Shown: positions 3,954-14,713, counted from the first letter of the stretch. The stretch: DNA of 30,147 bases from a virus (IMGVR_UViG_2778261179_000014:1-30147); one strand, 5' to 3'. Translations and numbers: made by a program. The notes: generated from the letters alone by a model not told the origin.

Positions 3954-4145
3954 TTAAAGACCTGCCGGGATTTCGATATTATCCTGGTGAATAACTTTAT
4001 CGACCGGGTAACAGTTACCGGGAATTTTCTGTTCGGTTGCTGCTGCCATACATTCCTGCATTGTTCTGTGAACACTGACTGCAATATCAACTGGCTCTCC
4101 GGAAACAAGAAAAACCGTCAGAATAAGTGCAAATACTGGATTCAT
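3954..4145 (-). CDS. Hypothetical small protein with hydrophobic N-terminus
   Basis: 63 aa from ATG at 4145 (AAGGA 8 nt upstream); the start overlaps the stop of the upstream gene as ATGA (translational coupling); N-terminus MNPVFALILTVFLVSG is hydrophobic. Confidence 0.4.
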   Translation of the reverse strand: MNPVFALILTVFLVSGEPVDIAVSVHRTMQECMAAATEQKIPGNCYPVDKVIHQDNIEIPAGL

Positions 4146-4330
4146 TGTGCACATCCTTTTGGCATCAGACGTAAACGGGCCAGCATTGAAACAATGCATA
4201 CTTTATTTAATAACTCCCGTTCGTGTTTTCTTTTGTTAATGGCCTCTTCAGTGAATACAGGATTACTGATAGTGACACCAATTTCAAAACAACCTTCAGA
4301 CGTATTAACGTTTGGTAATAACGTTTTCAT
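4142..4330 (-). CDS. Hypothetical small protein
   Basis: 62 aa from internal ATG at 4330 with GAGGG 7 nt upstream; coupled to the downstream gene by ATGA overlap. The longer track ORF (to 4435) lacks an RBS. Confidence 0.4.
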   Translation of the reverse strand: MKTLLPNVNTSEGCFEIGVTISNPVFTEEAINKRKHERELLNKVCIVSMLARLRLMPKGCAQ

Positions 4331-4868
4331 TATCGCGCCCTCAACAATGAGTTTTGTGATGCGGTGCCTGGTGCCTCCAGGTGACGTTAACCAGTTAACA
4401 ATTAACGCCGGATACAGAGAATCCACCCATAACACTGTTTTTGGTTTTAACTGTTCCGCGTGCGCTTAGCCGCATTCACCGCATCACAAAATTCACTTTA
4501 AAAATGGCGGCAGAGCAGTCACGGAGTAAAACTGATACCGCCAAACGTCACCAGAAAATTGATAACAGAGGGCGTTGCAGCGGGGTTGTCACTTAAGCGT
4601 ATGGTCAACCTGACAACCCGGTGTCCTCAACGGGGAAGGAATAACCCCGCCATACTTACCGCCGCGCCATTTCGCGGAGTGCCACAACCGGAAGCGCACG
4701 GTCGACGAAAATTTAACGACAGGCTATCTATAAACCAGCTACCTCGCCGTACGCTTTCGCGTTGTGTGCCTGCTTTTAACCACGTCAGGCGAGGTGGTTC
4801 CTGTTATTCCCCAACAACAAGAAATTTGTATAATCCGGATATCCCCAACAACGAGAAGAGTACTCAAC

Positions 4869-5324
4869 GTGATAGCAGAACTGTCAGCGGCTATGGCTGC
4901 GATAAAGGAGACAGCTGGTCTCGCTAAGGTTATTAATGACGCAAAAACGGATGCAGAAGTTAAAGCCGCAACTATTGAACTTCAGAACAAACTAATCACG
5001 CTTCAGGCGGAATGCTTCTCTCTTTGCGATGCGATCCGCTTTCGTGATGAAGAGATAATGCATCTCAAAGCAAAAATTGCAGAGACAGAAGATTTTCAGC
5101 GACAGGCGGAAGGTTACAAGCTTAACAAGCTTGATTCTGGAACCCTTGTATATTCCAAGAAGCAATTTATAGGCGATACTGAGATAACTGTGCATCTTTG
5201 CCCACAATGTTTTGGAAAAAAGGTAATATCTGTACTTCAGCCAATGGAAATAATGCGCTTTGATGCTCATTTTCGTACTTTTTGCCCCGCTTGCAATAAT
5301 AAGTTCTGGATGAACTCAAGATAA
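4869..5324 (+). CDS. Hypothetical coiled-coil protein with C-terminal CPxC...CPxC zinc ribbon
   Basis: Plus-strand ORF inside an otherwise minus-strand early-left region; perfect TATAAT at 4829-4834 upstream; candidate starts GTG 4869 or ATG 4893; N-terminal heptad-like region (ELQNKLITLQAE..., LKAKIAETEDFQRQAEG) and C-terminal HLCPQCFG...FCPACNNKF. Confidence 0.6.
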   Translation: MIAELSAAMAAIKETAGLAKVINDAKTDAEVKAATIELQNKLITLQAECFSLCDAIRFRDEEIMHLKAKIAETEDFQRQAEGYKLNKLDSGTLVYSKKQFIGDTEITVHLCPQCFGKKVISVLQPMEIMRFDAHFRTFCPACNNKFWMNSR

Positions 5325-5459
5325 TTAACCGTTTAAATAAGTTGGGACTATCCAGATTTTTAAAGAACGTACCGGATGCTCACCCGTGTCCGGCGCACGC
5401 ACTCCACCTCACCCGTGGAGAACTCCTTAATTACCAACCTTAGCTTCGTTGGTTAGCTA

Positions 5460-5678
5460 TTAGCGCGGGTATGTAATCATTCTGGCAATGCTTAATGCTG
5501 CTGCTTTTTCCAGCCTGGTGATATCCTGCTCCAGAGCGGACAGATTTTCAGCCTGCTTAGCCCTGGCTTCATTGGCCCATTTCAGATCCTGCGCTGCATT
5601 AATTTTCTGGCGCATCCACTCATAAAGTTCATCATCGGTATAGTCTGGCGCGATGATGACGGGTTCTCGTTTCTGCAT
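5460..5678 (-). CDS. Hypothetical early-left protein
   Basis: 72 aa, ATG at 5678 with GAGGAA upstream; last gene of a three-gene leftward cluster downstream of the OL region. Confidence 0.5.
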   Translation of the reverse strand: MQKREPVIIAPDYTDDELYEWMRQKINAAQDLKWANEARAKQAENLSALEQDITRLEKAAALSIARMITYPR

Positions 5679-5707
5679 ACTGATTCCTCGCGGTGCTGCT
5701 TCGCTTA

Positions 5708-6270: not shown

Positions 6271-6918
6271 TTATAGGTTGAACTGCACACCTTTTGCTAC
6301 GGCAACAATTTTACACTCTGGCGTAAGCAAGGATGATTGATAGCGCGGATTGAGAGGGCTTAAATACACAAGTTTTCCATCAATAACTAATTTTTTTATA
6401 GTCATAGACGGTTCATTTGTAAGTGGATCTGGAACTATTACAGCGACGATACTGCCATTTTTATAACTCTCTCCTGGTCTTAGGATCACAGTGGCACCAA
6501 CCGGGATACTTGGCGACCCTGAGGGGTTATGCATAGTGTCATCAGGCATTGAAACGGCAAAATCACCTTCCACTACATCAAAGAATGTGGTGATCCTATC
6601 GACATTTCCCATTGTTTTCTCTCCTTCTAAGATTAGGAAAGAAATCGCGTCACCCCACGAAAAGTAGGGGATCTTGGTGCCTGGATTGCTCTGCACAAAA
6701 GATAGTTCAGGAGACGATACTCCATACAGGAGATAGGACTCAGTAGTTCCTAATGCCTGGGCTAACTTACTTAGAGCTTTGCTGCCGGGTTCGTTTAGAT
6801 CTTTCTCCCAGTACCCTATAGTAACCCCAGTCACGCCTGAAAGCTTACCCAGTTCTACTTGGGTGAGTCCCTTATCTTTTCTGAGTTTCTTAAGCCTGAT
6901 GCCAAGGCTTTCCATCAT
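6271..6918 (-). CDS. CI-like phage repressor (HTH plus S24 LexA-like peptidase domain)
   Basis: 215 aa; N-terminal HTH (GLTQVELGKLSGVTGVTIGYWE); C-terminal domain with Ser (AVSMPDD) and Lys (MTIKKL) typical of autocleaving repressors; divergent from a cro-like gene. Confidence 0.85.
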   Translation of the reverse strand: MMESLGIRLKKLRKDKGLTQVELGKLSGVTGVTIGYWEKDLNEPGSKALSKLAQALGTTESYLLYGVSSPELSFVQSNPGTKIPYFSWGDAISFLILEGEKTMGNVDRITTFFDVVEGDFAVSMPDDTMHNPSGSPSIPVGATVILRPGESYKNGSIVAVIVPDPLTNEPSMTIKKLVIDGKLVYLSPLNPRYQSSLLTPECKIVAVAKGVQFNL

Positions 6919-10606: not shown

Positions 10607-10760
10607 TTTTATATTGGCGAGGTAACGGGAGTTAAGTAGAATGGCTGCGGGTGCTTGAGGCTATCTGTCTCAGGCATGAACACCAAAGGCAGATAGAGAA
10701 AAGCCCCAGTTAACATTACGCGTCCTGCAAGACGCTTAACATTAATCTGAGGCTCAATCT

Positions 10761-10973
10761 ATGAACGGCAAATCTAGGTTAGCCTCTTACGTGCCGAAAG
10801 GCAAGGAGAAGCAGGCTATGAAGCAGCAAAAGGCGATGTTAGTCGCCCTGATCGTCATCTGTTTAACCGTCATTGTGACGGCACTGGTAACGAGGAAAGA
10901 CCTCTGCGAGGTACGAATCCGAACCGGCCAGACGGAGGTCGCTGTCTTCACAGCTTACGAACCTGAGGAGTAA
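10761..10973 (+). CDS. Mok-like upstream reading frame of the hok locus
   Basis: 70-aa ORF that includes the hok frame with a 19-codon N-terminal extension from ATG 10761. Confidence 0.4.
   Translation: MNGKSRLASYVPKGKEKQAMKQQKAMLVALIVICLTVIVTALVTRKDLCEVRIRTGQTEVAVFTAYEPEE
10818..10973 (+). CDS. hokD: Hok/Gef-family type I toxin (HokD/RelF-like, 51 aa)
   Basis: MKQQKAMLVALIVICLTVIVTALVTRKDLCEVRIRTGQTEVAVFTAYEPEE; AAGGAG RBS 9 nt upstream; single TM segment plus the conserved C and Y. Close match to my recollection of E. coli HokD. Confidence 0.85.
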   Translation: MKQQKAMLVALIVICLTVIVTALVTRKDLCEVRIRTGQTEVAVFTAYEPEE

Positions 10974-14403: not shown

Positions 14404-14479
14404 GGCCCTTTAGCTCAGTGGTGAGAGCGAGCGACTCATAATCGCCAGGTCGCTGGTTCAAATCCAGCAAGGGCCACCA
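14404..14479 (+). tRNA. tRNA with anticodon CAU, Ile2 (lysidine)-like
   Basis: Hand-folded cloverleaf: acceptor GGCCCTT/AAGGGCC, D-stem GCTC/GAGC, anticodon loop CTCATAA, T-arm GCTGG-TTCAAAT-CCAGC, encoded CCA. Resembles E. coli ileX from memory. Confidence 0.8.
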
Positions 14480-14480
14480 A

Positions 14481-14557
14481 CCGCCACTAGCTCATCAGGA
14501 AAGAGCGTCAACCCTTTAAGTTGAGTGTGCGAGGTTCGAGTCCCCGGTGGCGGTCCA
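14481..14557 (+). tRNA. tRNA-like gene with atypical anticodon loop CCTTTAA (anticodon UUU, Lys-type, isotype uncertain)
   Basis: Acceptor CCGCCAC/GTGGCGG (7 bp, C1-G72), D-stem GCTC/GAGC, anticodon stem TCAAC/GTTGA, T-arm CGAGG-TTCGAGT-CCCCG with one A-C mismatch, encoded CCA. Position 33 is C rather than the near-universal U. Confidence 0.55.
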
Positions 14558-14559
14558 GT

Positions 14560-14635
<76 letters not shown>

Positions 14636-14638
14636 TAT

Positions 14639-14713
<75 letters not shown>

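Follow-up and report, generated by a model that had tools for sequence, protein, structure and literature searches.

The stem-loop-rich spacer upstream of dicB in a Qin-like prophage is the dicF locus with its predicted processing structures

The stem-loop-rich stretch between positions 4331 and 4868 of the window (the whole 30,147-nt viral sequence analysed) is the known dicF locus together with its processing structures and is not an unknown element. We are highly confident that, within the leftward early operon (PL-type, 'dicBF') of a Qin-like lambdoid prophage, it forms the untranslated spacer from ydfC through dicF to dicB, and that it is transcribed from the minus strand. dicF was among the first bacterial sRNAs to be described, and the dicF/dicBF operon of the Qin cryptic prophage is said to have been the subject of work by Bouche & Bouche in 1989, Faubladier et al. 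in 1990 and Ragunathan et al. in 2023. The first-pass annotation of this DNA had offered a small regulatory RNA, a structured 5′ leader or a cluster of protein-binding sites as possible readings. The first of these was right, as dicF (Rfam RF00039) lies inside the stretch, and a structured leader is present as well, but the sRNA had been neither located nor given a strand, and the DicF hairpin with its terminator (4557..4500) had been missed. The features of the spacer and its surroundings are as follows.

4142..4330, minus strand: dicB, encoding a 62-aa cell-division inhibitor, the next gene of the operon (Pfam PF05358, E 5.7e-39, full length)
4347..4496, minus strand: structured dicF-dicB spacer domain (module C), with an outer helix of 19-21 bp (4495-4477/4366-4348), from the fold and covariation
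4500..4557, minus strand: DicF sRNA, 53 nt (4557..4505), plus the terminator U tract (4504..4500), from Rfam RF00039
4558..4573, minus strand: A/U-rich single-stranded linker, identical to the K-12 sequence
4574..4688, minus strand: four-helix junction (module A), inside the 190-nt DicF precursor, from the MFE (minimum free energy) fold and covariation
4688-4681 and 4581-4574, minus strand: closing stem of module A, in which GUUGUGGC pairs with GCUGCAAC
4677-4662, 4649-4631 and 4619-4583, minus strand: module A hairpins H1, H2 and H3, the last with a conserved 19-nt loop
4683..4772, minus strand: long imperfect hairpin with a basal helix of ~22 bp (4766-4742/4708-4683) and a variable tip, from the fold and its recurrence
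4772..5368, plus strand: inserted cassette of 597 bp, outside the dicF element, from the K-12 alignment
4808-4823 and 4842-4857: 16-nt direct repeats, TCCCCAACAAC(A/G)AGAA, flanking the TATAAT
4829-4834, plus strand: candidate cassette promoter TATAAT, read from the sequence and not reported by the consensus scan
4869..5324, plus strand: cassette gene, 151 aa, phrog_1244 (function unknown), E 1e-51

When compared with Rfam, the minus strand matched DicF well above the family threshold (73.4 bits, E 1.3e-14; gathering score 48), with 4556..4505 aligned to model positions 1-52 of 52. Compared with K-12 dicF (b1574), 52 of the 53 nucleotides are identical, both target-pairing regions being included, and the only mismatch is at the base that directly precedes the U tract. 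The 3′ intrinsic terminator is present as GGCGGUAUCAG...CUGCUCUGCCGCC followed by AUUUUU; it was not flagged by the consensus terminator scan because its 11-nt loop and irregular stem fall outside the rules of that scan. Alignment of 4330-4765 with the K-12 Qin ydfC-dicF-dicB spacer gave ~98% identity, and DNA of the dicF spacer was present in 4722 of 5426 complete E. coli genomes, with dicB annotated beside it by RefSeq. In phage Tritos, a DicF RNA is annotated at the homologous position. A scan of genome contigs with CAGGTTGACCATNCGC gave, among the matches listed, a true copy only in Escherichia albertii, the others being chance matches. We also observed that 238 nt of the 254-kb Aeromonas phage AP1 (MT713136.1, 249906-250143) share 98% identity with the dicB-proximal spacer of E. 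coli, a match that looks like contamination or a chimeric assembly and not like real homology.

The minus-strand gene order, ydfA-ydfB-ydfC-dicF-dicB-ydfD, is the same as in K-12 and phage Tritos. All five operon protein genes were identified in the K-12 order and on the minus strand, interrupted by a single foreign cassette; the identifications include DicB, YdfD (DUF1482), YdfC (phrog_1744) and YdfA (DUF1391). The minus-strand start claimed at 4330 was read as an ATG at 4330-4328, with a Shine-Dalgarno sequence (GAGGG) at ~4343-4339, but the gene that begins there is no unknown protein gene, as had been supposed. Its product is DicB, matching both PF05358 and NCBIfam NF049927 (130.7 bits, cutoff 100), and RefSeq labels dicB in a 99.4%-identical locus; the gene after it is ydfD. 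Upstream on the minus strand lie ydfC, ydfB and ydfA, and then a repressor (6271-6918, minus strand), which is a 215-aa HTH and S24 peptidase protein of the self-cleaving LexA/CI type. K-12 Qin has DicA instead, which is described as being without a cleavage site. Because the adjoining repressor is of the S24-peptidase type, unlike DicA, induction of dicF and dicB in the present prophage may be SOS-dependent. The prophage keeps int, xis and an exonuclease and is less decayed than Qin. Elsewhere in the window we noted a sok antitoxin RNA (10649-10823, plus strand, 110 bits) and four tRNA genes (14404-14710, plus strand), both typical of lambdoid/Stx-like prophages.

The locus shares with K-12 dicF/dicBF (Qin) its sRNA, spacer, gene order, terminator and predicted RNase III and RNase E substrates, but differs from it in the plus-strand cassette that lies between ydfC and the processing hairpin. 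Homology to K-12 is lost from ~5369 to ~4772, the cassette replacing ~45 bp of the K-12 ydfC-dicF spacer. The cassette was found in 59 of the 5426 complete E. coli genomes, and its first ~80 nt also occur in further genomes with different downstream content. The 151-aa cassette protein has a coiled-coil N-terminus and a CxxC...CxxC C-terminus, and its gene received no assignment from Pfam, PADLOC (defence systems) or NCBIfam. Since homology is lost at ~4772, the right-hand 60 nt (~4772-4830) of the interval delimited in the first-pass annotation belong to the cassette and not to the dicF region. The same insertion accounts for the 'divergent intergenic space' in which the stem-loops had been placed; the space is actually an internal untranslated spacer of the leftward early operon, and looks divergent because a plus-strand cassette has been inserted into it.

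It could still be argued that the stretch serves as a promoter/operator region for divergent transcription, in which clustered protein-binding sites control both dicB and the plus-strand gene. Indeed, 4772-4868, which contains a perfect TATAAT and the two flanking 16-nt repeats, plausibly drives the gene at 4869. However, the consensus scan found no minus-strand promoter-like site in 4100-5700, 4330-4765 is contiguous with ydfC in cassette-free genomes, and the inverted repeats covary in the manner of RNA helices, G-U pairs included, as expected of RNA but not of DNA operators. Experiments in K-12 also saw no promoter within the operon (PMC10448788). We consider the divergent-promoter explanation, and with it the proposed cluster of protein-binding sites, to be very improbable. 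For the operon reading that we prefer, the position of the cassette has a possible consequence, as an antisense unit at this site may lower, or otherwise change, the transcription that reaches dicF from the operon promoter.

The local features listed in the first-pass annotation were recovered. The 9-bp inverted repeat GGGTTGTCA/TGACAACCC is at 4583-4591/4611-4619 (9 nt, 100% complementary), CGGGG/CCCCG is at 4631-4635/4645-4649, and CCGCG/CGCGG is at 4662-4666/4673-4677, ~2 nt off the range first given; GTTAAC occurs twice, at 4386-4391 and 4394-4399, and a TTAAC comes next at 4402-4406. The description of the region as GC-rich was likewise borne out, the G+C content being 0.50-0.54 over 4351-4950 compared with 0.39-0.43 on both sides. 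The three hairpins sit within the published 190-nt DicF precursor. Further pairings had been overlooked, namely the ~22-bp helix 4742-4766/4683-4708, the closing stem 4688-4681/4581-4574 and a 19-nt long-range inverted repeat, 4348-4366/4477-4495. Folded as minus-strand RNA, the 543 nt between both flanking start codons (4328-4870) reached −207.7 kcal/mol (z −5.1), and none of 100 shuffles was as good; as plus-strand RNA the same segment reached −177.7 kcal/mol (z −4.35), so that it folds far better than shuffles on both strands. Because the minus-strand fold is better by 30 kcal/mol and the conserved helices contain G-U pairs, the structures belong to the minus-strand transcript.

The claim that the stretch is non-coding proved sound, because its ORFs have no match in Pfam or PHROGs, RefSeq annotates no CDS over it, and close homologues differ by 1-nt and 4-nt indels within it. 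We nevertheless weighed the possibility that a small protein is encoded here. ORFs can be read mechanically at 4441-4596 (plus strand), 4559-4927 (plus strand) and 4739-4867 (minus strand), and some phage records carry 'hypothetical proteins' over homologous DNA. Against this, the search of these three ORFs against Pfam and PHROGs returned nothing, neither RefSeq, in the near-identical locus, nor K-12 has an annotated protein here, the indels interrupt the homologous stretch, and the substitutions preserve base pairs and not codons. We give the small-protein explanation hardly any weight at all. An analogy to RNA-dependent defence or toxin-antitoxin systems had also been drawn, and nothing supports it; DicB is reported to keep some phages out, though through a protein mechanism in which this RNA plays no part (PMC10448788).

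In K-12, DicF derives from a polycistronic transcript and has no internal promoter (PMC10448788; PMC9438474; PMC5069750), and the dicBF operon has been described as having dicF within a long untranslated region (PMC5069750). A terminated 1146-nt transcript is a main species, and a 190-nt species, which is stable in vivo, has a 5′ end made by RNase III (PMC10448788). The 5′ end of the 53-nt DicF is RNase E-dependent (PMC10448788; PMC9438474; PMC5069750), and the 3′ end arises by intrinsic termination, or by RNase III for a 72-nt form (PMC9438474; PMC5069750). We located these ends on the present sequence from the RNA lengths, which places the RNase III sites within a few nucleotides (the published site is 'between 813 and 814'). 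The expected 5′ end of the 190-nt species is near 4694 (4505+189), within the 3′ arm of the ~22-bp helix, and the expected 3′ end of the 72-nt DicF is at 4486, within the 5′ arm of the 19-21-bp outer helix. E. coli RNase III needs roughly two helical turns, and both long helices provide them. By analogy with K-12, the ~22-bp helix is thus the predicted RNase III substrate for the 190-nt 5′ end, and the outer helix 4495-4477/4366-4348 the predicted RNase III site for the 72-nt 3′ end.

The hairpin that contains the first of these helices (4772..4683) had a folding energy of −41 kcal/mol (z −4.5), which none of 200 shuffles equalled. Its basal helix recurs in most dicF-type loci while the tips differ, and phage cdtI has at the same place a hairpin of unrelated sequence, whose 3′ arm likewise ends in GUUGU. 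The annotated K-12 dicF begins at the base homologous to 4557, after the U4558/U4557 junction, from which we infer that the RNase E cut giving the DicF 5′ end lies between U4558 and U4557. The following scheme of processing would fit these positions. A polycistronic transcript would begin upstream of ydfA and then traverse the spacer; RNase III would cut the ~22-bp helix 4766-4742/4708-4683 to give the 5′ end of a stable 190-nt RNA consisting of the four-helix junction and DicF; and RNase E would cut the A/U-rich linker at 4558/4557 to give the 5′ end of the 53-nt DicF. Most transcripts would terminate at the DicF hairpin and its U tract (to ~4500), the others reading through into dicB-ydfD, and an RNase III cut of the read-through RNA in the 19-21-bp outer helix would release the 72-nt DicF and split it from the dicB message. 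The mature RNA, as known from K-12 work, would bind Hfq and base-pair to repress the ftsZ, manX, xylR and pykA mRNAs. Both the cleavage positions and these targets are carried over from K-12 experiments on a nearly identical sequence and should be read as probable. In being cut out of a longer operon transcript, DicF resembles SroC, CpxQ and SdhX, which are produced by early intrinsic termination combined with endonucleolytic 5′ processing of a longer mRNA (PMC9438474), but it differs from them in having RNase III helices on both sides and, in its 190-nt form, a big conserved 5′ domain.

We analysed this 5′ domain, module A, by comparison of its copies. The MFE fold of 4566-4692 is exactly the four-helix junction. 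As the junction by itself is no more stable than its shuffles (z −0.67), the support for it is purely comparative. An exact-word scan of viral contigs, together with annotated phage loci, gave 47 distinct copies, among which 95.7% of the cells form standard pairs. Eight pairs are changed on both sides, compared with 2.2 in column shuffles (0 of 500 reached 8) and at most 5 in slid controls, so that covariation, which had been put forward as a check on the stem-loops, supports the four-helix junction. H2 retains its hairpin shape although its stem occurs in six or more different sequences. Hardly any variation is seen in the H1 stem or the H3 loop, the constancy of H1 being partly by construction because the retrieval word lies in H1. 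Read on the other strand, the frequent U-G and G-U pairs of the closing stem would not match, and they therefore fix the strand as minus. Across 28 variants, the H2 loop (4636-4644, minus strand) is pyrimidine-rich and keeps a UCCU/CUCC motif, resembling an anti-Shine-Dalgarno sequence, despite the changes in its stem. A pseudoknot between this loop (UCCU) and the downstream GAGGA linker was considered and dropped, as it is not kept in P1, L034 and L116. In H3, the 5′ arm (GGGUUGUCA) is directly followed by a near-repeat in the loop (GGUUGACCA), and the 3′ arm can pair with either. A competing fold is therefore possible for H3, and RNAalifold paired the loop GGUUG with the 3′ arm; one compensatory change favours this alternative, the change in P1 favours the 9-bp H3, and we retained H3. 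A permissive Rfam search of 4300-4900 found no family for module A; apart from DicF and a sub-threshold STnc100 match, it listed only mascRNA over part of the module, a chance-level match (E 6.1) that we rejected. A literature search that covered neither the P1 genome paper nor the 1990 study by Faubladier et al. found no report on module A.

Module A can also be present without DicF. Such copies lie ~280 nt downstream of a PL-like promoter beside cI in phages cdtI and 2H10 and in Stx2c phages; in P1, module A is in the leader of the ban operon, ~45 nt past the −10 signal annotated for P1ban, in an area that the P1 GenBank record labels just 'dicF-like region'. Every sequence class of module A has an intrinsic terminator within 20-50 nt downstream; the linker and terminator hairpin differ among the classes, several of them scoring below the Rfam threshold for DicF. 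Module A is always preceded by a feature that defines a 5′ end, either an RNase III hairpin or a promoter. The dicF region is modular, and module A behaves as a conserved 5′ unit placed before variable seed-terminator units.

This distribution raised the question of whether module A is a separate functional RNA, either a cis-acting read-through element like the put sites of HK022 or a shared 5′ scaffold, that is, a 'pro-sRNA' cassette. Its occurrence without DicF in cdtI, Stx2c phages, 2H10 and the P1 ban leader speaks for such a role, as do the terminator that follows in every class behind variable linkers, the unchanged orientation of the downstream genes, the covariation that backs all variable helices, and the stability in vivo of the 190-nt species that contains the module; the near-invariant H1 stem and H3 loop further suggest recognition by a factor. 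The likeness to HK022 putL and putR is one of analogy, both being structured RNAs of an early phage operon (promoter-proximal for module A in cdtI and P1) followed by terminators that must be passed for downstream expression. However, put has two stems of ~70 nt whereas module A has four helices over ~115 nt, the two have no sequence similarity, and HK022, although part of the searched phage collection, was absent from the matches. We rejected membership of module A in the HK022 put elements on these grounds (no blastn match to HK022, a different architecture). Termination at DicF is also substantial in K-12, where the terminated 1146-nt transcript is a main species, which means that read-through is inefficient and argues against efficient antitermination. 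A lambda-type nut reading was rejected as well, neither a boxA nor an N-like protein having been found: no boxA (GCUCUUUA-like) was read in the sequence upstream of H1, and no such Pfam match was obtained among the operon proteins or for the ORF downstream in cdtI, the N-terminus of which is acidic.

Plain processing through RNase III and RNase E, combined with 5′ protection, explains the data on module A equally well. A separate role for module A is, in our opinion, doubtful. The same tentative standing applies to the wider proposal that module A is an undescribed, independently mobile phage RNA domain common to Qin-like, cdtI/Stx2c-like and P1-like phages. On the mobile-domain reading, DicF may be one of a wider set of sRNAs that share a 5′ scaffold, and the scaffold may serve antitermination, controlled release of the sRNA, or binding of a factor through the H1 stem or the H3 loop. 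We prefer the simpler reading, in which module A might be a processing and 5′-protection structure and nothing else, as is consistent with the stable 190-nt species.

On the dicB side of DicF, module C folded to −60 kcal/mol (z −5.4). Its outer helix is formed by the 19-nt inverted repeat, which is 95% complementary, and its inner hairpins include a CCUGG/CCAGG hairpin and a GTTAAC hairpin (~4412-4386), of which the GTTAAC motifs are the two arms. RNAalifold analysis of 35 distinct copies showed that the outer helix is kept, with exchanges of G-C for G-U and of A-U for U-A, around a hypervariable central hairpin. Module C matched Rfam STnc100 (RF02076) at model positions 21-154 of 206 with 38.8 bits (E 6e-7), below the gathering score of 47. 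Because of this score, module C is, as judged from its alignment, a relative of the STnc100/PasD prophage RNAs and not a member of the family. STnc100 has been described as prophage-associated (bioRxiv 10.64898/2026.05.13.724894). The alignment takes in the outer helix and both the GUUAAC and the CCxGG hairpins, but unlike STnc100, module C sits inside an operon, with an sRNA on one side and a protein gene on the other.

Similar domains were seen in other contexts. In the ban operons of P7 and P1, an STnc100-like domain lies just upstream of terB/tciA (L005 2501-2616 and L004 3842-3961), the P7 and P1 copies scoring 43 and 33 bits against STnc100, both below the gathering threshold. In some viral contigs (L014 4747-5234 and L126 951-1359), isrK and C4 antisense RNAs, and not dicB, come after an STnc100-like domain that follows the DicF position; contigs of this isrK/C4 type (the antirepressor-control region) have four or five structured RNAs in one early operon. 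The PasA and PasC sRNAs were considered as candidates for the DicF position and set aside, as their described context (RusA, TerB, DUF1627 and lysis genes) is a different part of the prophage.

The position of module C suggests a further explanation, in which the stretch would act chiefly in cis, as a regulatory 5′ leader whose structures between DicF and dicB govern the translation of dicB or the stability of its mRNA. The segment 4504..4331, between the DicF terminator and the dicB start, contains a very stable domain; the 3′ arm of the outer helix stops 17 nt before the ATG; the dicB message would take its 5′ end from an RNase III cut made there; and the same domain is found upstream of terB/tciA in P7 and P1. 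On the other hand, the Shine-Dalgarno sequence is outside the helix, and the leader covers only the left third of the stretch in which the stem-loops were found. It is also compatible with the main explanation and so no alternative to it. As an account of the stretch as a whole, we consider the dicB-leader reading conceivable but somewhat less than probable. The earlier suggestion of a structured leader held in part, as 4504..4331 leads dicB in read-through transcripts.

Taken as first described, the stem-loop-rich stretch amounts to a rediscovery of dicF in a common prophage context, with little at stake; such novelty as there may be lies in the four-helix domain, which is conserved, and in the antisense cassette, a rare insertion next to the dicF region. 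The fit of the two long helices to the RNase III-dependent ends offers a concrete structural reading of DicF processing, which can be checked by mutagenesis. Module A, conserved and backed by covariation, recurs in the ban leader of P1 and before seed-terminator units that differ from one another, which suggests that phages reuse it as a module to make or control sRNAs or to get past early terminators. If module A has a function of its own, this would explain why a stable 190-nt 'long DicF' exists.
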